In this document: in pieces, positions 5,660 through 14,530 of the stretch
How positions within the stretch are numbered: position 1 is the stretch's first letter
Layout: the number at the start of each line of letters is the position of its first letter
DNA from: Runella sp.
GTDB lineage: Bacteria; Bacteroidota; Bacteroidia; Cytophagales; Spirosomataceae
DNA: 31,306 bases
Assembly (NCBI GenBank): GCA_043769455.1
Contig: JAYVJH010000537.1
Span: 1 to 31,306 of the forward strand
Reading direction: 5' to 3'
Translations under genes and position numbers: made by a program
Notes under the pieces: generated by a model
What the model saw: only the letters and a program-made list of their open reading frames with translations
Databases searched by the model: none
Told to the model about the DNA's origin: nothing

Positions 5660-8600
5660 ATGATTCCTATAAAACTAACGCTCAAAGGTATTCATTCCTA
5701 TCGTGAAACCCAGACTATTGAGTTTGACAAACTAACCGAAGCAGGTCTTTTTGGTATTTTTGGTAAAGTAGGTAGTGGCAAATCTACAATTCTCGAAGCC
5801 ATTAGTTTTGTGCTTTTTGGCAAGCGAGAACGAGCCAGTAACTATGACTTGTTTAACTTACGGTCGGATAAACTACTGATTGACTTTGAATGTAGGGCTG
5901 GGCGAGACAATAATCTGTATCGGTTTGTGGCCGATGGGCGACGCAACGGCAAGCAATTTGAAAAAGTATCGATGGACAGACGGGCATATCAATGGCTGAC
6001 CGAACTCAAAGACTGGTCGCCGATTGAGTATGAAGACCCCGCCGAAAAAATTATTGGTCTGAGTTACGATAATTTTAAACGGACGATAATAATTCCACAA
6101 GGTCGCTTTCAAGATTTTATTGATTTGGGCGACACAGAGCGTACCAAAATGCTCAAAGAGTTGTTTAAACTCGAACGCTTTGATTTGTCGAAACAGTTGG
6201 CTGCCGTCAAGAGCCAAAACAAAGACCAACTTACTGAAAATCAGGCTCGAATAGATGCAATCGGTGATGTGTCGGAAGAGGTAATTGCCCAAAAAATACA
6301 CGACCTTAAAATAACCAAAGAACTGTTTTTGATAGAAAGCAAGACCCTCAGCCAACTACAAAAACAAGCTACTGAACTGACAGAACTACGGCTGAACATT
6401 GATAAATTAAACCAAGAAAAAGAAAAAGTAGATAGGTTGAACCTACAAAAGCCGTTTTTTGAGGCTCGGAAACAAGTTTTGAAAGACTATGAATTTTGTG
6501 CTACTAATTTCAAATCAATTATAGATCGTAGAGCCGACTACGCCAAAAACTTAAACCAAGACCAAACTAAACTCAACACAAAGGCTGCAGATTTTAAAAC
6601 GATTCAGGGGCAGTTAGCCATTCAACAAAAAAATATAGAAACGCTGCGGCCGCAATATGAAACACGGCAAAGACTTAAAGATGAAGCACTTGAACTCAGT
6701 AAAATTATTGACATAAAGAAAAAAAATGACCAAAAAACAGATATAGACAAACGCATTGCCAAAGGTGAAACACTACTAACTGAAAAAAACGAAGCTATCA
6801 AACAGCGACAAGCTACACTCAATATATTACAAACACAACTTCAAAAAAACAAAGCCGACCTACCAGATGTACTGCAACTGTCGGAAATAAAAACATGGTT
6901 TGCCCAAGCTAAAAATTGGGCCGATGCCCGAAAAAAATTAAAAGATGAGGCCGATGGCTTGCTCAAAAAACAAGAAACAGAATACCTAAATATAACAAAT
7001 GCCGTGTTTTATGAACAGTCAAACTTGGTTGCAGATATGCCACAGGGTACGACAACGGCGGTAGTGATTGAAGCACTGAAAGTGATTCAGGCTACCAAAA
7101 AACAAGAAATTGTGGCCTTAGACCAGTCGTTACTGTACCTAAATACTCAAAAAGCCTTACAGCAATATGCCGATGGGCTGGCCGATGGCAAGCCGTGTCC
7201 GTTGTGTGGCTCTGTGCATCACCCGAGTAGTCTTAGTTCGTCTGAAAATTTTGATAATCAAACGATTACGATAAAAAAACAACGAGCAGACTTACAAAAT
7301 CTAACAGATTTTATTGTCAAAGCGATTGGTAAAATAGAAAATAGTCAAGTAAAATTAGACGAAATAGCCCAACGTAAAAATGAAATAAAACAAGAATGGG
7401 CAACTCAAACAAACGAAATAGAGCAACATAAGCAGGCGTTTGTTTGGCAGCCGTTGTTTAGTGCCGACCAGCCCGAAGCCGTTGAAAAGGCATTTGCCGA
7501 GGCCAAAAATAAAAAAAATGATGTTGAGCGTTTGGAAAAAATCATCGAAACCGAAGCCAAAGCAATAGAAACAGAAAAAGAAACGATTAGTAAATACGAA
7601 AAGCCGATTGCTGAGTTGCGCTTAGAATCTGCGGGTTTGCAGTCGGTTATGGAATCGTTGCTGGGGCAGTTGCAAAAATTAAATTTTCAAGATTTTGTAG
7701 AAACAAACACTGAAACGCTGACTCAAAAACAGACAGAATTAGACCAGAAATACAAAAAAATTACTTTAGATTTTGAACAGTTAGACAATGTCATCAAGGT
7801 ACAAACCAATGCCAAAAGCAGCTTGGAGGGCGAGCTGAAAATATTGGACGATTCGGTAAAAAACAATACGGCAGAGTTAGCGAAAATCAAGGCCACATTA
7901 TCTGAAAAAATAATAGAAGCTGGTTTTGAATCTGAGCAAACGATTACCGATATTTTGGCTCAACGACTAAATATAGACTTGGAACGCACTGATATTCAGA
8001 CTTTTGAACAAAATATAAAACTGGCAGATCTTGCCCTGACAAATTTAAAACTATTGGTAAACAACCAAACGATAAATGCTGAACAAGAGGCCGAAGTAAA
8101 AAATAATGTGATAGAACTGGAACTGAAAATATCGGAATTACAAAAAACAGAAGGTGGTCTCAACACAGAATTAACATCGCTACAAACTCGGTTTGGCCTA
8201 CAAAAAGAACTACAAGCGGTCCGTAAAAAAGTAGAAGCCCGCCAAACAGACATTAACTTGATTGATACGTTGTTTAGGTCAAACGGTTTTGTTAATTATG
8301 TGTCGTCTGTCTATTTGCAAAATTTGTGCAACCAAGCCAATGAGCGTTTTTATAGAATGACACGCCAGCAGTTACAACTCGAAATTTACCAAAAAGACGG
8401 CAAATATGACTTTCAAGTCAGAGATTTGCTCAACGATGGCCGCACACGGGCGTTGAGTTCGTTGTCGGGTGGGCAGAAGTTTCAGGCTTCGTTGTCGTTG
8501 GCTTTGGCCTTGGCCGACAGTATTCATACCCAAAACGAAATGAAAGAAAATTTCTTTTTCTTGGACGAAGGTTTTGGGTCGTTAGACAAAGACTCGTTAC

Positions 8601-8749
8601 AAGTGGTTTTTGAAACTCTCAAATCGTTGCGCCGAGAAAACCGTATTGTGGGCATTATCTCGCACGTCGAAGACTTACAACAAGAAATCGACCGTTATTT
8701 AGTTGTTACAAACGACGAAGAATTGGGTAGTTTGGTGGCGGTGTACTAA
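5660..8749 (+). CDS. sbcC: Exonuclease SbcCD subunit C (Rad50-like SMC ATPase)
   Basis: Walker A GKVGSGKST, long coiled coil, zinc hook CPLCGS, signature LSGGQ, Walker B FFLDEGFGSLD, H-loop IISH. Confidence 0.95.
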   Translation: MIPIKLTLKGIHSYRETQTIEFDKLTEAGLFGIFGKVGSGKSTILEAISFVLFGKRERASNYDLFNLRSDKLLIDFECRAGRDNNLYRFVADGRRNGKQFEKVSMDRRAYQWLTELKDWSPIEYEDPAEKIIGLSYDNFKRTIIIPQGRFQDFIDLGDTERTKMLKELFKLERFDLSKQLAAVKSQNKDQLTENQARIDAIGDVSEEVIAQKIHDLKITKELFLIESKTLSQLQKQATELTELRLNIDKLNQEKEKVDRLNLQKPFFEARKQVLKDYEFCATNFKSIIDRRADYAKNLNQDQTKLNTKAADFKTIQGQLAIQQKNIETLRPQYETRQRLKDEALELSKIIDIKKKNDQKTDIDKRIAKGETLLTEKNEAIKQRQATLNILQTQLQKNKADLPDVLQLSEIKTWFAQAKNWADARKKLKDEADGLLKKQETEYLNITNAVFYEQSNLVADMPQGTTTAVVIEALKVIQATKKQEIVALDQSLLYLNTQKALQQYADGLADGKPCPLCGSVHHPSSLSSSENFDNQTITIKKQRADLQNLTDFIVKAIGKIENSQVKLDEIAQRKNEIKQEWATQTNEIEQHKQAFVWQPLFSADQPEAVEKAFAEAKNKKNDVERLEKIIETEAKAIETEKETISKYEKPIAELRLESAGLQSVMESLLGQLQKLNFQDFVETNTETLTQKQTELDQKYKKITLDFEQLDNVIKVQTNAKSSLEGELKILDDSVKNNTAELAKIKATLSEKIIEAGFESEQTITDILAQRLNIDLERTDIQTFEQNIKLADLALTNLKLLVNNQTINAEQEAEVKNNVIELELKISELQKTEGGLNTELTSLQTRFGLQKELQAVRKKVEARQTDINLIDTLFRSNGFVNYVSSVYLQNLCNQANERFYRMTRQQLQLEIYQKDGKYDFQVRDLLNDGRTRALSSLSGGQKFQASLSLALALADSIHTQNEMKENFFFLDEGFGSLDKDSLQVVFETLKSLRRENRIVGIISHVEDLQQEIDRYLVVTNDEELGSLVAVY

Positions 8750-8769
8750 GTGCTGCGAATCTCTGATTA

Positions 8770-9180
8770 TTAGGGTTTTAAATTATCTTTCTCTCGTAGA
8801 TATTTTGCCTCTATCTCAGCCTTTTCTTTTTCTGCTTGGCATAGTTTGAGTTCAAGTTGTAGTTTTTCTATTTGGTGCTGTGCTTCACGAGAATCATAAT
8901 TATTATTAGCTGTTTGGCCACCATTGTTTGTCCCTGTTACTACTTGCGGTGTGCTGCATTGGTCAAAAAAATTAGAGACAGTCTTTCCAAATTCCTCAAT
9001 ATCTTCTTTAGAAATACCGAACTCTTCGGCTATTTGCGCTATGCGCTCATCGCTTGGTTCAGTTTTGCCACGTTCAATATCTCCATAAGCTAATCGAGAA
9101 ATACCTATCATGTTAGCCATATTTTCTTGTGAAAGTCCTTTGATAGTTCTCAGAAATCTAATTTTTTCTCCTGTTTTCAT
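8770..9180 (-). CDS. XRE-family helix-turn-helix transcriptional regulator
   Basis: HTH_3 pattern KIRFLRTIKGLSQENMANMIGISRLAYGDIERG plus a C-terminal coiled coil. Divergent from the peptide operon. Confidence 0.9.
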   Translation of the reverse strand: MKTGEKIRFLRTIKGLSQENMANMIGISRLAYGDIERGKTEPSDERIAQIAEEFGISKEDIEEFGKTVSNFFDQCSTPQVVTGTNNGGQTANNNYDSREAQHQIEKLQLELKLCQAEKEKAEIEAKYLREKDNLKP

Positions 9181-9188
9181 AGTTTGTG

Positions 9189-9224
9189 CAAAATGTATAG
9201 TGGTTGGTTTACAAAATGTATAGT
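9189..9224. promoter_or_regulatory. Perfect 13-bp direct repeat CAAAATGTATAGT (candidate operator)
   Basis: Copies at 9189-9201 and 9212-9224 (23-bp period), directly upstream of the XRE start in the divergent promoter region. Confidence 0.5.
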
Positions 9225-9324
9225 ATTGAAAAGATGATAAAAATAATAAAAATTATCACATTTGTCTCAGTAAATTATTTGTTACAAAATTAAATCATTT
9301 TTCACATTAAAACTTGTAAATAGT

Positions 9325-9663
9325 ATGAAAAAAACATCAAAAAAATTTATCATTTTCGGACTATTATGTCTGTTTTTTGCTACCAACTCTATTGGTAGCA
9401 GCCCAGCTTTAGGGCGTTACAACACTATAGCCAATCCTAAAAATTATCAACCTAGCGGCGGCAAAGCCAATTATCCTGCGGTTGTAACTGCGGCTGTTGC
9501 TGTTGTAGCAACCACTTACTTTGCCGTTTATGAAGCTGGTAGAATCTTGGGCAAAGCTGCCTACTATTTTTTGTCAGGTAATACTGCAGTCAATGACGTA
9601 CAAAGTGCTGAATTTGCGTATTACAATGCAACAGATTTTTCATCTTATGACGCTAAAAATTAA
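9325..9663 (+). CDS. Secreted precursor peptide 1 (SdpC-like candidate toxin/RiPP precursor)
   Basis: 112 aa. Sec signal, GRY motif, Ala/Val/Gly-rich hydrophobic core (PAVVTAAVAVVATTYFAVYEAGRILGKAAYYF), C-terminal ATDFSSYD. First gene of an operon with SdpA/SdpB-like genes. Confidence 0.7.
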   Translation: MKKTSKKFIIFGLLCLFFATNSIGSSPALGRYNTIANPKNYQPSGGKANYPAVVTAAVAVVATTYFAVYEAGRILGKAAYYFLSGNTAVNDVQSAEFAYYNATDFSSYDAKN

Positions 9664-9679
9664 CTAAAAATAAAAAATT

Positions 9680-9994
9680 ATGAAGAAGAAAATTAACATT
9701 TTTATGCTACTGTTAGTATTATTTGTAAACATTAGCTACACAAACAGTGTCGCCATAGGCCGTTACAAAAATTCTAATATCCCCATATCAGTCAATTCTA
9801 ACGATAGAAAAGTAGGTTTTCCTGGATTGGTTTTGGCAGCACTGTACGTTGTAACATTAGGGGCGGTTTTTGTTGCTGGATTTGCTGAAGGTTGGGGACA
9901 AGCTGATGCAGCAGGTACTCAACGTTATACAGGTGTTTTCCCACTTTCAGAGAACCCAACAGATTTTTCTAAATTTGACACTGCGATAAATTAA
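9680..9994 (+). CDS. Secreted precursor peptide 2 (paralog of peptide 1)
   Basis: 104 aa. Sec signal, GRY motif, hydrophobic core (PGLVLAALYVVTLGAVFVAGFAEGWG), C-terminal PTDFSKFD. Confidence 0.7.
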   Translation: MKKKINIFMLLLVLFVNISYTNSVAIGRYKNSNIPISVNSNDRKVGFPGLVLAALYVVTLGAVFVAGFAEGWGQADAAGTQRYTGVFPLSENPTDFSKFDTAIN

Positions 9995-9996
9995 AT

Positions 9997-10677
9997 ATGA
10001 AAGGGTTTATTGAACGAGTCAGCTACGGGTGTAAAGTTCTACTTAGACTTACACTCGTAGCTACTCTATTTTTACACTTTAGTATAGTTGCTCTCGATCT
10101 TTTACCAGACAATCCTATTAAGCATCAGTATAAAAGAGAGTTGTTATACTACATGAATCCATTGTTTGCCCAGTCATGGAATTTATTTGCACCCAATCCA
10201 GTAAATTTTGATACCGCTATTTTGCTTCAATTCAAGAAAATGAAGAAAGGAAACGAAAATACTACGGCTTGGGTAGATATAATAGAACCATTATTAGAAA
10301 TACGAAGACAATCATTTTGGTCACCAACTCAAAGGGTTCTGAAAAATATGTCATCTATTACACAAAGTATAGCAGAAACCAATAACAATATTCGTATTTA
10401 TATCCAAAAAACAGATTCGCTTAAAAATAAAGATGTTGTAATTGATAAAATTTATAGCCGTCTTTATCCTACTTCACCTGGTCATATAGCACTAATACAA
10501 TATTCTAAGTATGTCTATAAAAACATGAATGAGACCGCGGATTTTGATAGTGTTTTGGTAAGATATAGAATTGTTTATCAAGAGTATCCTCGATTTTCAA
10601 AGCGAAAGCAAGATTATAACGACAAAAAAAACTGGAAAAATTCTGAAATTATTTCTAACTTTTATAAAGTCCAATGA
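9997..10677 (+). CDS. SdpA-like / DUF5819 family membrane-anchored protein
   Basis: Single N-terminal TM followed by YMNPLFAQSWNLFAPNP (the Q-x-W-x-(L/F)-F-A-P-x-P motif of DUF5819/SdpA). Immediately upstream of an HTTM gene with an ATGA overlap. Confidence 0.75.
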   Translation: MKGFIERVSYGCKVLLRLTLVATLFLHFSIVALDLLPDNPIKHQYKRELLYYMNPLFAQSWNLFAPNPVNFDTAILLQFKKMKKGNENTTAWVDIIEPLLEIRRQSFWSPTQRVLKNMSSITQSIAETNNNIRIYIQKTDSLKNKDVVIDKIYSRLYPTSPGHIALIQYSKYVYKNMNETADFDSVLVRYRIVYQEYPRFSKRKQDYNDKKNWKNSEIISNFYKVQ

Positions 10678-11879
10678 CATATAGCCAAGGCTTATCATAT
10701 TACAGGTTTGTTGTATCGTTTCTGGTAATAAAAAATACAATTTTTTATTTTCCAATGGCGAGTGAACTATTTGGTAAGAACGCCATTATCCCTTTGATGA
10801 TATATGATGCAAATAACAGTAGCCTTTTTTACTTAAAAACGCTACTCTTTTTTCCATTCCAATATTCTTACAGTGCACAATTATTTTTAATTTTGACTTT
10901 TATCACAGCGACCATATATTTGTTTGGTAAATGGCGTTTTGTTTCTGGTTGGATTCTTTATTATTTCATTATGGTAGCCAAAGAACGAAATGGTTTTATA
11001 CTTGATGGTTCTGATAATGTCATACAGGTAACATTACCTTTTTTGATTTTAGCCGAAACTTTACAACCACAGTTAGTTGCGAAAGTACTATTTTTGGATA
11101 AAATAAAAAACTTTACTAACTTTGATTTGTTCCTGTTGGCGTTAAAGGTGCAAGTATGTTTTGTGTATTTTTTTACCTCCTTAGCAAAACTACAAGGTAC
11201 TTTGTGGTTGAATGGCACTGCTGTTTACTATACTATGCGAGTGAGCGAATTTAATGCTACATCATGGAACGTACCTCTAACAGAAAACCACTACTTTGTA
11301 GTTGCATCAACATATTTTACGATTCTCTTTGAAATCGCTTTCCCTTTTTTAATATGGTTTAAGAGACCTAAATTTTTTATAATTATTGCAGGCATATTCC
11401 TACACGTAGGAATATGGGTATTTATGAGAATAGATAATTTTTCATGGATAATGATTGGTACTTATTTTCTTTTTATAGCAGACAACGAGTACAACCAGTT
11501 TCAAGCTATTGTTTACAAAAAAAGACTGTTGATTTATTTTGATAGTTGGTGTCCCAAATGTAGAGCGTTTATTTCACTAATTAGGATGATAGATGTTTTT
11601 GAAAATGTCCAATACGCATCAATCAGAGATATAAAAACAAGTGATATTATTGATACAAAGCGTTCTTTAAGAGAAATGCCATCTATTCAGACAAACAATG
11701 ATAAAGTTTACTATGGTTTTGATTCTCTTTTGAATGTTACCAAAGCTATTCCTATTCTCTGGCTTTTTGTTCCCTTGATGTATGTCTTAAAAATCACCAA
11801 CTTGGGCAAAATACTGTATAAAGAAATAGCTGATAATCGTAAAACTTTACACTGTAACGAAGATGAATGTAGTTTATAA
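10674..11879 (+). CDS. SdpB-like HTTM-domain membrane protein fused to a C-terminal DCC/DUF393-type thiol-disulfide oxidoreductase domain
   Basis: HTTM hallmarks: RNGFILDGSD, QVCFVYFFTSLAKLQGTLWLNGTAVYY, FEIAFPFLIW, GIFLHVGI. C-terminal LIYFDSWCPKC (DxxCxxC) ...YYGFDS..LYKEIADNR. Confidence 0.8.
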   Translation: MTYSQGLSYYRFVVSFLVIKNTIFYFPMASELFGKNAIIPLMIYDANNSSLFYLKTLLFFPFQYSYSAQLFLILTFITATIYLFGKWRFVSGWILYYFIMVAKERNGFILDGSDNVIQVTLPFLILAETLQPQLVAKVLFLDKIKNFTNFDLFLLALKVQVCFVYFFTSLAKLQGTLWLNGTAVYYTMRVSEFNATSWNVPLTENHYFVVASTYFTILFEIAFPFLIWFKRPKFFIIIAGIFLHVGIWVFMRIDNFSWIMIGTYFLFIADNEYNQFQAIVYKKRLLIYFDSWCPKCRAFISLIRMIDVFENVQYASIRDIKTSDIIDTKRSLREMPSIQTNNDKVYYGFDSLLNVTKAIPILWLFVPLMYVLKITNLGKILYKEIADNRKTLHCNEDECSL

Positions 11880-12177
11880 TTATTTCATACAAAGTAATTG
11901 GGTTCTTTGGTATGGTATTCCGCTGGTGTTGTACTACATTACTATATTTTATTTATTTCCAAACGTATATTTACTAAATTTGAATATACAGGAAAAAAGA
12001 ATTTATCCCCATATTAAGTCCACGCTTCTATTTGTCGCTTTACCGTATTTGTTAATATCGCTAATTATTTTTTTCATAGATATTAATATTTCCAATTCAC
12101 TATCGTCAAAGAGTGGTAGGATAATTACCTCATATCTACTCGTCAGACTTGTGTTACCATCACTTAAAATTAAGTAA
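11863..12177 (+). CDS. Small hydrophobic membrane protein (candidate immunity)
   Basis: 104 aa with 2-3 TM segments. Overlaps the HTTM gene end by 17 bp and has the same AT-rich composition. Confidence 0.5.
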   Translation: MNVVYNYFIQSNWVLWYGIPLVLYYITIFYLFPNVYLLNLNIQEKRIYPHIKSTLLFVALPYLLISLIIFFIDINISNSLSSKSGRIITSYLLVRLVLPSLKIK

Positions 12178-12181
12178 ACCC

Positions 12182-12703
12182 ATGAACATCTACACAAAGT
12201 TTTTATTCTATTCTATTGTTACTTCTCTGCTCGCCTTATTCGTTGTTTACAGTGTTTCATACTACATATCCAGTGACGGATTCTCTTCAAATGAGTCAAT
12301 TTTCTATGGTATGCTGGTCGCTTTTATCTATTTTTTAGTGTCTTTCATTACTGATACCATCTTTCTAACTCAGTATAAACAAGATTGTAAAAATGAAAAT
12401 ATATCGGTTGTAAAAAAACGGTTTCAGTTTCTGGCTATGACTATATTACCTTTTATATTTATAACTCTAATTGACTGGCTTTATTTCACCTTTATTGATA
12501 GCAGCATACCTAAAATGCACGTAGAATCAATAGCTGATGTGCTTATTTCCAATGGTCAAGACCCCGATGTAGTGTATAGTTTAGCTGAATTACCTCTAAT
12601 TGCCCAAAATATATTCGTTATTTTATTAGGTAAGATGATGAGTTCTACGTTTGCTATATTATTGTCAGACTCAATAACAAAAGACAAAGAACGTACTTAT
12701 TAG
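12182..12703 (+). CDS. ~4-TM membrane protein (DUF4199-like; candidate immunity)
   Basis: 173 aa from ATG 12182, 4 bp after the previous stop; the ORF-track start at 12149 overlaps that gene. Three TMs, a loop (YFTFIDSSIP), then a final TM. Confidence 0.6.
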   Translation: MNIYTKFLFYSIVTSLLALFVVYSVSYYISSDGFSSNESIFYGMLVAFIYFLVSFITDTIFLTQYKQDCKNENISVVKKRFQFLAMTILPFIFITLIDWLYFTFIDSSIPKMHVESIADVLISNGQDPDVVYSLAELPLIAQNIFVILLGKMMSSTFAILLSDSITKDKERTY

Positions 12704-12720
12704 TCTTGAATCAATAACCC

Positions 12721-14460
12721 CTACCAAGCAATGGTATAGGCAATCATTTCTTTGAGTGGTGCAATGAGTTCTTGTTTGCCATTGCTGGTACGGACAACGG
12801 GCGAAAACTCAGATGGAATATAAATATAATATTGCTGATGACGACCGTTGCTGGTGCCGTTGTCAATACTATAAATTCCTTTTTCGATTTCTATTATGGC
12901 ATCGGCCACGGCCAGCCGAATAGTCAGATCTGTAATCAATGCTGCGGCAGTGATGGTATTTACAAGCCCATTCCGGGTGGGTATTAGCTTTTGAGTTATT
13001 TCGGTTTTATCAAATAAATAATGTAGCGTGGGCGCGCCCAGTTCGTCTAATTTTGTTGCTTTGTAAGTGATGGCTGCCACGGTGTCAGGCCAGAGTGCGG
13101 CAGGCTCGTTGAGTGTAGCGATAATACTCTTTCCGTCTAATTGTTGCTTGACACCCAGCGGTTTGAGTAGTTGTGGCTCGCCCCGTTCGTGCCACATCTC
13201 GGTAACATCTGCAAACGCCCCACGCCATACTTGTAGCAAAGCAGCTTGGTTCAAATCGACAGAATAATGCAGCCCTTGCGGACTACCGACCGATAGTACG
13301 TGGGTGCGTTTTGTGCTTTCGCCTTCTATTTGTATAAAAGACCGCAATATTTCGGGCTTGTCTTTGGGTTCTACGGTTATCATTGGTATTGGCTCAGGCT
13401 CTGGCAAAGACGATAGCGCATGAAGTGAATAAGGCCGAACGCCCAATGCCGAAACCGTTAGCCCTAATGCTGCTGGCCGCCAGGCTTTGTGATAAAACAA
13501 CCTAAACCGATGCTCACCAGCCGACAGATTGACCGACCTACCGACAGGTTGCTGCGAAAACTCACTCCATTGGTTAGGTAGCACAGGCTTGTCGTCTATT
13601 GCCAAACTCAAATGACCCATATAGGCCATCGAAAACTGATACTCGGCAGTTATTTTAACGTTTATCGTTCCGTCATAAACTACACAAAAATCTTTTTGAC
13701 CCACGCCCCATGTCTGAGAGAGGGTTGATGTGGTATCTTTTTTTATTAGGTTTTTGGGGTCAATACTTTCAATGTTTTCTGCCCAGTCTTTATATAACTG
13801 GTAAGTCATTTGGGTTAGCGAAACTGGTTTTACTTCGTTCTGAATCTGATATAATACTTTTTGAACGGCCAATGTACCTGCTTCGACCTGAAAGCTAAGT
13901 ATATTTGAGTTGTTGGTTTGGGGCAAGAAAATATTTTCTTGAATCAAAACATCATTCAAATACAGGTATTCGAGTTGTGCTGGGGTGGCTGGTCTGGCTT
14001 TTCTGATTAGTAGCCTCACTGTTTGCCAAAGTCCTGATGCCTTACTTGCGTTTTGAGATGGAATGTTATTGCCGATACCTCCAGAAGTAGTATTTTTAGT
14101 GCCGTTTTGTAGCCAACTGTCTGCCACTTTAACAACATAACCACCTGGTAGAGTTACGTTACTTTTACCATCTTTTGATATTGCAAACTCAAATTGCAAC
14201 AACACATCACCACTCTCTAAACGAACCGTGGCTGGCATACCTACCGAACCCAGCAACACACCTTCGGTTTCAGAATAGAGTGGTAATTTTTGAGTTGCAT
14301 CAGGTTTGAAGGGGTGCATTTGTACTTGTTCATATACTTTCCAGTTGTCTTCAATCTTAAAAGAGTTGGGTGTAAGATTGGTCAAGCCATTCTGTGCAAG
14401 TGTATTGATGGCAGTCATACATAGTACGACAACAGATAAAAGCCGGTTATGAGAAATCAT
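12721..14460 (-). CDS. Secreted protein with a DUF1080-like (3-keto-disaccharide hydrolase-like) N-domain and a PA14 domain
   Basis: Signal peptide ending LA-Q from ATG 14460. NASKASGLWQ and YLNDVLIQEN are DUF1080-like. FCVVYDGTI..EYQFSM..LAIDDK..LSAGEHRFRLFY is PA14-like. Confidence 0.65.
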   Translation of the reverse strand: MISHNRLLSVVVLCMTAINTLAQNGLTNLTPNSFKIEDNWKVYEQVQMHPFKPDATQKLPLYSETEGVLLGSVGMPATVRLESGDVLLQFEFAISKDGKSNVTLPGGYVVKVADSWLQNGTKNTTSGGIGNNIPSQNASKASGLWQTVRLLIRKARPATPAQLEYLYLNDVLIQENIFLPQTNNSNILSFQVEAGTLAVQKVLYQIQNEVKPVSLTQMTYQLYKDWAENIESIDPKNLIKKDTTSTLSQTWGVGQKDFCVVYDGTINVKITAEYQFSMAYMGHLSLAIDDKPVLPNQWSEFSQQPVGRSVNLSAGEHRFRLFYHKAWRPAALGLTVSALGVRPYSLHALSSLPEPEPIPMITVEPKDKPEILRSFIQIEGESTKRTHVLSVGSPQGLHYSVDLNQAALLQVWRGAFADVTEMWHERGEPQLLKPLGVKQQLDGKSIIATLNEPAALWPDTVAAITYKATKLDELGAPTLHYLFDKTEITQKLIPTRNGLVNTITAAALITDLTIRLAVADAIIEIEKGIYSIDNGTSNGRHQQYYIYIPSEFSPVVRTSNGKQELIAPLKEMIAYTIAW

Positions 14461-14487
14461 AAGTGGTTGTGTTGAGGCAATAAAAAC

Positions 14488-14530
14488 AAAAAAGGCAGTT
14501 AGCATTTATAAATACTGACTGCCTTTTTTT
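14488..14530 (-). terminator. Rho-independent terminator after the T9SS Ig-repeat gene (probably bidirectional)
   Basis: AAAAAAGGCAGTTAGCATTTA/TAAATACTGACTGCCTTTTTT is a near-perfect palindrome with A/T tracts on both sides, 17 bp past the stop at 14547. Confidence 0.8.

Follow-up and report, generated by a model that had tools for sequence, protein, structure and literature searches.

What are two small, apparently exported peptides doing directly in front of a membrane enzyme related to carboxylases? The question is raised by a contig of Runella sp. (Bacteroidota; Cytophagales; assembly GCA_043769455.1, contig JAYVJH010000537.1), the whole 31,306 nucleotides of which are hereafter called the window. 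Positions 9,325 to 9,994 carry two adjacent genes, referred to here as type A and type B, which are followed at once by genes for a DUF5819 protein and for an HTTM protein fused to a DCC1-like oxidoreductase. A preliminary description of this DNA had seen in the pair a signal peptide, conserved flanks, a divergent hydrophobic core and a common C-terminal tail, and had proposed the leader/core/follower logic of peptides that ribosomes make and that are modified after translation (RiPPs). Our analysis indicates that the two peptides are probably the dedicated substrates, or cargo, of the DUF5819-HTTM enzyme. To the fuller model, in which Sec-exported A and B pro-peptides would be matured by that enzyme into a two-peptide toxin resembling SdpC of Bacillus subtilis, we give, judging from the sequences, slightly less than an even chance. 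What is new is a tagged two-component precursor family in Gram-negative Cytophagales; what is of a known kind is the SdpAB-like, carboxylase-like peptide maturation.

All the elements listed in the preliminary description were found in two open reading frames that both start with ATG. Each product has a Lys-rich N-terminus and then a hydrophobic stretch leading to a small-x-Ala site of the signal peptidase I type. The signal peptide is followed by L/I-G-R-Y, by a polar linker of ~18 residues, and by a Y/F-Pro (YP in type A, FP in type B) that opens an Ala/Val/Gly-rich hydrophobic stretch of 26-34 residues, with one Glu in each core (E70 in both peptides). The tail, TDFSSYD at residues 103-109 of type A and TDFSKFD at residues 94-100 of type B, stands 3-4 residues before the stop codon. 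With the signal peptide removed, the mature peptides would be about 80 residues each. BLASTP aligned type A with type B at E=1e-8 (39% identity over 67 residues), and the pair is confirmed, at the level of sequence, as two real paralogous genes related beyond chance. In the 3.78-Mb genome, the pattern [DN]F[ST]x[FY]D at most 14 residues from the C-terminus was found in 2 of 6165 open reading frames of at least 60 residues, both of them the window pair, as compared with about 0.2 expected by chance on a rough estimate. An AlphaFold2 model of type A showed helices at residues 5-24 and 52-83 and no structure in the remainder, with a mean predicted local distance difference test score (pLDDT) of 63, that is, at low confidence. 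Two other identities were considered and rejected. The peptides are not lipoproteins: a Cys does occur in the type A signal peptide, but in mid-helix and with no lipobox, and type B and many relatives have none there. Nor does the tail look like a sorting signal of the type IX secretion system or of a similar route, as it is a 6-residue motif with neither a helix nor a basic cluster behind it, the features by which such signals are generally recognized. Nothing supported the suggestion that the tail directs export across the outer membrane.

How widespread are such peptides? Neither window peptide matched Pfam or NCBIfam above noise, and the family, a rare one, has no model in either. A HMMER profile of both peptides, run against 1.84 billion cluster representatives, returned 23 proteins at E<=0.001; 21 of these, besides the window's own two, were about 90-120 residues long and shared the architecture of the pair. 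Related genomic loci were then collected by alignment of DUF5819 and metagenome contigs were added, which brought the family to 44 members showing the same architecture, all seen in Cytophagales. A word-indexed protein search with type A returned the query alone, and a search of the ESM Atlas gave a top feature score of 0.83, which is chance level, with structure matches to generic helical membrane fragments. We found no publication that describes this peptide family or its tail.

Three conserved islands stand out in the 44 sequences: a Gly at +2, a Gly-zipper, and the C-terminal tail. The Gly at +2 past the predicted signal-peptidase site is invariant and x-Tyr usually comes next, the predicted mature N-terminus being (L/I/F/V)-G-x-Y across the family. 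The Gly-zipper sits in the hydrophobic stretch, at its C-terminal end; the 22 type A sequences all have G72 and G76, and Y69 is conserved among them to at least 90%. The tail usually reads Y-x-x-x-D-F-S-x-F-D with 0-7 residues beyond it, and its variants are NFT-DFD, AFAEFD, EFSQFD, DLKRFD, and DFEKFD. The 44 members share the final Asp without exception, and the aromatic residue preceding it is Phe except in a few members (Tyr in the window type A). In type A, D109 is invariant, and D104, F105, S106 and the aromatic residue at 108 are at least 90% conserved. Linker and spacer are essentially unconserved, and so is every Glu, including that of the core, which leaves the tail Asp as the sole invariant acidic residue. 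Most members pass the membrane-helix hydropathy threshold; about 6 of the 44 do not, and these sub-threshold members (maximum 19-residue Kyte-Doolittle values of 0.34-1.2) include L012 copy 2, L014 copies 3-5, and L018 copy 3. The middle region differs between paralogues and is wholly replaced in a few extra copies (L006 copy 0, L018 copy 3, L014 copy 4).

The preliminary description was thus borne out in part. Its single core Glu was not a feature of the family, as Glu is not conserved. Its conserved flanks do extend family-wide around a middle that differs, but the C-terminal portion of the core ranks with the best-conserved segments of each type. The RiPP logic would fit the flanks and the adjacency to an enzyme, but the core is not hypervariable in the RiPP sense and keeps its own motif per type.

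The linkage to DUF5819-HTTM was strict. At 14 of 14 loci with a readable flank (the window, L002, L006, L007, L008, L012-L019, and L098), DUF5819-HTTM is immediately preceded, on its own strand, by 2-5 tail-bearing precursors. We also looked at co-occurrence in 401 genomes spread evenly over the order. DUF5819 was present in four (G000, G335, G629, and G934), and peptide matches at E<1e-8 were confined to this set, none of them farther than about 1 kb from DUF5819; five weaker matches in other genomes (E 3e-4 to 8e-3) were partial and noise-like. The preliminary description would have been refuted had the motif turned up mostly in proteins lacking HTTM/DUF5819 neighbors, and this is not the case. 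Because they are always just upstream of a carboxylase-related enzyme, the peptides are the best current candidates for its natural substrates in bacteria.

The family falls into two types. In a maximum-likelihood tree built on the mature parts of the peptides, 12 of 13 first genes fell in one clade of 21 rows with no second gene inside (support 85/90, drawn as an open fork). The first/second label needed 2 changes on the tree versus 9.0 in shuffles, and 0 of 500 shuffles was as low. The window type A belongs to the first-gene clade, and the window type B groups with second genes of other loci. Each type has its own motif, Y-x-x-G-x-x-x-G-(R/H/Q/T)-A-A-Y for type A and G-A-F-x-x-G-x-x-x-G-(Y/W) for type B, the latter containing G-x-x-x-G-x-x-x-G. 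The A-then-B order is kept in Hymenobacteraceae, in Cyclobacteriaceae, in the window's own family, and on metagenome contigs. By this phylogeny the A/B pair is ancient. Since the pair is old and its order preserved, a two-component product is favored over two independent ones; the preliminary description had left both in play. Some loci carry extra precursor copies: L006 and L018 have three each, and L014 has five. The latter locus (L014:3054-4898, Hymenobacter sp. H14-R3, also G629:C16) deserves a word of its own: its five tandem tail-bearing precursors, upstream of DUF5819, are short and by turns type A-like and type B-like, their hydrophobic cores being much reduced, and in three of the five FD is the very C-terminus. 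Short precursor forms like these were also seen in L012 (H. metallicola).

What kind of enzyme is it? The HTTM protein of the window matched a genuine SdpB in BLASTP (1e-13 over 295 residues) and the SdpB family model TIGR04033 with 49.7 bits (E=3.9e-13), far under the curated cutoff of 178. By these scores it is an SdpB homologue and not an equivalog. The Pfam HTTM domain (33.1 bits versus a cutoff of 27.7) is present with the Lys of the catalytic position. A profile of 14 HTTM proteins matched human GGCX (E=2.6e-12), and in this match Lys172, invariant in the 14 sequences, falls on the second Lys of VKKL, which we take to be the catalytic K218. The alignment shows that the HTTM partner retains the carboxylase Lys. 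As for the DUF5819 protein, hhalign related it to SdpA with 90.5% probability, over 47 N-terminal columns only; indeed, the N-terminal helix and a PxNPIKH...QxW motif are all that the two have in common. No NCBIfam model matched it, and DUF5819 was not matched in any of 14 control genomes, among which Bacillus subtilis was recognized by its TIGR04032 match. We presume that it is a distantly SdpA-like partner or substrate-handling subunit. Its N-terminus is positive and followed by one helix, so its domain should sit outside. The AlphaFold2 model of DUF5819 had a pLDDT of 83.5. The likeness to the clamp domain of GGCX was not reproduced from the DUF5819 single chain by Foldseek or VIA-align, and the modeled fold may be unrepresented among solved structures.

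The DCC1 domain is fused to HTTM in the window only, as far as the Cytophagales loci are concerned. L015 and L019 encode it separately (Pfam), and BLAST found homologues of the L015 gene in L016 and L018; in three Hymenobacter loci it is placed upstream and divergent. The mature parts of both window peptides are free of Cys, nor does the family conserve one, which makes a disulfide role on the cargo unlikely and the recycling of a cofactor more plausible. The genome encodes MenA (TIGR00751, E=4.9e-95, above cutoff), so menaquinone can be made and a naphthoquinone cofactor would be available.

We then asked which known system this locus resembles most. In Bacillus subtilis, the sdpABC operon converts SdpC into the 42-residue SDP, and yitPOM is a related operon (Perez Morales 2013, as summarized in PMC6818787). 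SdpC is exported by Sec, and its hydrophobic C-terminal domain is released as SDP toxin only in the presence of SdpA and SdpB; groups of SdpC homologues each have their own, different hydrophobic domain (PMC6818787). The likeness to sdpABC and yitPOM comprises a Sec-exported precursor with an Ala/Val/Gly-rich hydrophobic segment and then a polar tail, a hydrophobic segment that varies between groups, an HTTM protein and a small single-helix partner with the SdpA motif beside the precursor, and membrane-protein genes downstream. There are differences as well. The pro-region is about 20 residues in the Cytophagales peptides versus about 110 in SdpC; two obligate paralogue types replace a single precursor; the precursors are upstream of the enzymes here, downstream in sdpABC and yitPOM; the DFSxFD tail is conserved here and was absent from the two SdpC sequences that we read; and the Cytophagales peptides have no conserved Cys or disulfide, unlike SdpC. 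The DCC1 partner and the Gram-negative host also set the locus apart from sdpABC. The flanking genes, scanned with Pfam and NCBIfam, gave no match to SdpI or SdpR: the downstream membrane proteins had weak matches to DUF2721, DUF4199, and FraC only, and the upstream regulator matched XRE-type helix-turn-helix models. On sequence grounds, then, the system works most like sdpABC/yitPOM but fails on the precursor, on the immunity genes, and on the curated cutoffs.

Two other groups of peptide systems were compared. Class IIb bacteriocins (lactococcin G, plantaricins, enterocin 1071) likewise have two adjacent genes for peptides with complementary GxxxG-type helices, adjoined by genes for small membrane proteins. 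A lactococcin G-alpha/enterocin 1071A model (NF038035) even gave a weak match over the type A Gly-zipper segment AGRILGKAAYYF (window 9529-9576), with E=0.011 and 15.9 bits versus a cutoff of 37. Homology was rejected, as the match is below cutoff, is found in 2 of 23 members, and stands among other low-complexity hydrophobic matches; it probably reflects convergence of GxxxG helices. In addition, the Cytophagales precursors differ from those of class IIb in having Sec signal peptides (small-x-Ala) and not double-glycine leaders, in being much longer, and in their conserved C-terminal tag and linked carboxylase-like enzyme, and there is no C39-ABC exporter, the operon having neither a C39 nor an ABC gene. 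Linaridin clusters contain an HTTM protein, LinG/CrdG, whose role is unknown (PMC9927463). A ribosomal peptide gene beside an HTTM-domain membrane protein is all that is in common: the alpha/beta-hydrolase, decarboxylase, and methyltransferase of linaridin clusters were not seen in Pfam and NCBIfam scans in and around the operon, the peptides have Sec signal peptides versus cytoplasmic leaders, and they lack a conserved Thr-rich core. The locus is not a linaridin cluster, and its operon has no LinL/LinE hydrolase.

The SdpC-like model could run as follows. Sec export and cleavage after small-x-Ala would expose the (L/I/F/V)-G-x-Y N-terminus. The acidic tail with D-F-S-x-F-D would stay periplasmic and dock on the DUF5819/HTTM complex. 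An enzyme step, in which the Phe-Asp dipeptide of the tail might be modified or trimming licensed, would then permit maturation of the Gly-zipper helix, as SdpA and SdpB do for SdpC. The A and B helices would act jointly in a membrane, in the manner of SDP or of a two-peptide bacteriocin, and the two small downstream membrane proteins would protect the producer as immunity factors. A periplasmic location of the tail is suggested by those members that lack a membrane-grade helix, since these must be wholly extracytoplasmic.

Several observations weigh against this model. Neither window peptide matched the SdpC family (TIGR04032) at E<=10, and hhalign of the peptide family profile with a bona fide SdpC (L092) gave a probability of 1.3%. 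The majority of DUF5819-HTTM loci outside Cytophagales and Virgibacillus (for the latter see below), about 70 in number and mainly from Streptomyces, have no such precursor nearby. No peptidase, dedicated exporter, or outer-membrane route was found at the locus. Against the Protein Data Bank, Foldseek with the DUF5819 model returned nothing at E<=0.001, and the best Z of a wide VIA-align search was 4.6. Complex prediction for HTTM residues 1-285 with DUF5819 and the mature type A scored 0.09 versus a mark of 0.32, a value that weighs neither way on binding. Between L015 and L016, identity was 85% for type A, 71% for type B, 75% for DUF5819, and 88% for HTTM; by this comparison the peptides are not evolving faster than the enzymes, unlike many diversifying toxins. 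Lastly, a hydrophobic helix acting as a stop-transfer sequence would leave the tail in the cytoplasm, where an active site facing the periplasm could not reach it. What speaks against stop-transfer is that acidic and not basic residues come after the helix.

What might the enzyme do to the tail? DUF5819 with HTTM-DCC1 has been modeled as a split bacterial vitamin K-dependent carboxylase for which no substrate was named (bioRxiv 10.64898/2026.08.19.745780). The domain set, DUF5819, HTTM, and DCC1, is identical to that of our locus, where the enzyme genes are joined, in addition, by a dedicated family of tagged peptides. In GGCX the pocket anchors a Leu-Glu dipeptide, and a separate recognition peptide is bound by the lumenal clamp (PMC12647623), and MloH, a related enzyme of malonomycin biosynthesis, carboxylates an Asp (PMC12186529). 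The invariant hydrophobic-acidic dipeptide of the candidate substrates recalls the Leu-Glu of GGCX substrates. In contrast, the Cytophagales peptides have no Glu cluster of the Gla (gamma-carboxyglutamate) type and no N-terminal recognition element like a propeptide, and gamma-carboxylation of the core Glu was rejected, as that Glu is not conserved. That the Phe-Asp of the tag is the site of menaquinone-dependent carboxylation, or of another quinone-base reaction, carried out by the split DUF5819/HTTM with DCC1 as the quinone-recycling reductase, is a specific proposal that we regard as unlikely. If true, the peptides would give a bacterial homologue of vitamin K-dependent carboxylase its first natural ribosomal protein substrates, and the locus would hold a complete bacterial vitamin K cycle made of carboxylase, VKOR-like reductase, and tagged substrate. 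It could also account for the unexplained role of SdpA and SdpB, both of which have been known since 2013 to be needed for SDP toxin.

The same chemistry might serve a product that is not a toxin. In that case, the peptides would be substrates of a carboxylase-like enzyme whose action on the Asp of the tail, or on the acidic spacer, yields either an envelope protein that binds metal or calcium, or a factor anchored in the membrane, serving in housekeeping or stress. The invariant Lys at the catalytic position, the recurrence of DCC1, and the presence of MenA all agree with this, as do the invariant Asp preceded by Phe, given that MloH acts on Asp (PMC12186529), the about 6 of 44 members without a membrane-grade stretch, and the lack of fast divergence in the peptides. 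A housekeeping function is nevertheless difficult to reconcile with a very patchy, accessory distribution and a copy number of 2 to 5, with small membrane proteins, or an ABC ATPase (L012, homologue in L014), downstream as in bacteriocin loci, and with Gly-zipper helices that resemble membrane-active peptides. We assign it a low probability. Less likely still, the peptides would not be substrates: they would be small single-pass membrane subunits of the DUF5819-HTTM complex, or factors in its assembly, with helices packed in it through their Gly-zippers. Strict co-occurrence, translational coupling, the conserved GxxxG, and a rate of change similar to that of the enzymes would all be expected of such subunits. 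But several copies lack a membrane-grade helix (0.34-1.2), the number of copies ranges from 2 to 5, DUF5819-HTTM pairs of other phyla mostly do without such genes, and a cleavable signal peptide with an acidic tail would be unusual in a fixed subunit. It is quite improbable that the peptides are exported pheromones, matured by the enzyme and sensed by the XRE regulator or by another system: the divergent XRE gene upstream and the processing genes alongside small exported peptides fit such a role, but related loci do not conserve the XRE gene, neither a sensor kinase nor a receptor is linked, and products of about 80 residues with long hydrophobic helices are unlike known pheromones. Finally, that ordinary secreted or membrane proteins lie beside DUF5819-HTTM by chance is hardly credible, for order and strand are kept in 14 of 14 loci from at least two families and metagenomes, and co-occurrence is 4 of 4 among the 401 genomes; the complex prediction (0.09 versus 0.32) weighs neither way on binding here too.

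Dedicated cargo of the DUF5819-HTTM enzyme thus remains the reading that we prefer, and it makes the locus of practical use. It offers defined candidate substrates for an enzyme family of unknown bacterial function, in a strictly linked, compact group made up of the enzyme, its redox partner, and the pair of tagged peptides; the group is present in culturable Hymenobacter, such as H. psychrotolerans DSM 18569, H. arizonensis, H. duratus, and H. metallicola, and has one invariant motif to mutate. If the peptides are membrane-active, they would represent a new two-peptide antimicrobial type from Gram-negative Bacteroidota.

A parallel was found in a Bacillota genome. In Virgibacillus chiguensis, 3 of 3 DUF5819-HTTM loci (L022:4594-7107, L096:1345-3348, and L097:1647-4016) have an upstream Sec-type precursor of 92-114 residues, with an acidic linker, a Gly/Ala-rich middle, and a C-terminal D-(L/I)-x-x-x-F-D followed by 0-1 residues. 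In L022 they are followed by a DCC1 gene of its own. Comparison of the Virgibacillus peptides with the Cytophagales family by hhalign gave a probability of 67%, mostly over the signal peptide. The shared tail may reflect common descent or a common recognition requirement. As a side observation, L096 continues with a 398-residue protein whose sequence resembles that of the 399-residue protein following in L022.

In the window, the peptides head a tightly packed unit of six genes, A and B being followed by DUF5819, HTTM-DCC1, and two membrane proteins (Table 1). The gap between the type A and type B genes is 16 nucleotides, DUF5819 starts 2 nucleotides past the type B stop codon, the HTTM gene overlaps the DUF5819 gene by 4 nucleotides, and the gene for the 104-residue membrane protein overlaps the end of the HTTM gene by 17 nucleotides, including its stop codon. 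An Rfam scan of 8500-13000 detected no RNA element. A scan for sigma-70-type promoters upstream of the operon did no better than on shuffled sequence, and promoter and terminator scanning was uninformative. The XRE gene had no BLASTP counterpart among 10 related loci; it may be a local regulator.

Table 1. Positions of the operon, its parts, and its flanking genes in the window (nucleotides; aa, amino acid residues)
Feature	Position	Strand	Remarks and basis
SbcC/Rad50-like ATPase, 1029 aa, flank gene	5660-8749		Not conserved beside the system elsewhere
XRE-type helix-turn-helix regulator, 136 aa	8770..9180	-	Divergent from the operon; Pfam HTH_3 7e-13
AT-rich intergenic region 5' of the operon, presumed promoter region	9181..9324	+	Read from the sequence
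Type A precursor, 112 aa, ATG start	9325..9663	+	Signal peptide aa 1-28, LGRY aa 29-32, linker, helix aa 50-83, spacer, tail
Type A Gly-zipper Y69-x-x-G72-x-x-x-G76	9529..9552	+	22 type A sequences
Type A C-terminal tag D104-F-S-S-Y-D109	9634..9651	+	Family alignment
Type B precursor, 104 aa, ATG start	9680..9994	+	Signal peptide aa 1-25, IGRY aa 26-29, linker, helix aa 47-72 ending GAVFVAGFAEGW, spacer, tail
Type B C-terminal tag D95-F-S-K-F-D100	9962..9979	+	Sequence and family alignment
DUF5819 protein, 226 aa	9997..10677	+	Pfam PF19136 2e-21; N-terminal membrane helix and putative periplasmic domain
HTTM (aa 1 to ~275) fused to DCC1-like CxxC oxidoreductase (aa 287-393, nucleotides 11532-11852)	10674..11879	+	Pfam HTTM 33.1 bits, DCC1 1.4e-12
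Invariant Lys172 codon of the HTTM protein	11187-11189	+	Alignment of 14 sequences
Small hydrophobic membrane protein of 104 aa, a possible immunity or accessory factor	11863..12177	+	No family match
DUF4199-like polytopic membrane protein, 184 aa from TTG (ATG at 12182), candidate immunity or accessory protein	12149..12703	+	BLASTP to related loci
PA14-domain protein, 594 aa, convergent flank gene	12721-14505	-	Not conserved beside the system elsewhere

Downstream membrane proteins are also seen at related loci. Proteins that resemble the 104-residue one in size and position lie in L015, L016, and L018. The DUF4199-like protein matched downstream genes of L015-L018 in BLASTP at 1e-13 to 1e-14, with a match in L002 as well, and it recurs in L002, L012, and L014-L018; the DUF4199 matches themselves are weak (0.032 in the window, 3.6e-5 in L017). 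An ABC ATPase and a 247-residue protein lie downstream in L012 (Pfam), with homologous genes in the same place in L014.

Close relatives of the window DUF5819, with 38-45% identity over the full length, were found in six Hymenobacter species and in two metagenome-assembled genomes of Cyclobacteriaceae; the remaining matches were distant, mainly from Streptomyces with a few from Bacillota. In another Bacteroidota family, two DUF5819-HTTM pairs (L003:1375-2816 and L004:318-1836) lie beside a fumarylacetoacetase-like gene. They have no tail-bearing precursor, showing that the enzyme pair also occurs without this cargo. Within the window's own family, the system was present in 0 of 37 other sampled genomes. 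The GC content of the operon is about 0.32, with a range of about 0.30-0.35 (window 9200-12700), versus 0.37-0.49 in the flanks, and this low value, together with the absence from the 37 genomes, is consistent with horizontal acquisition.

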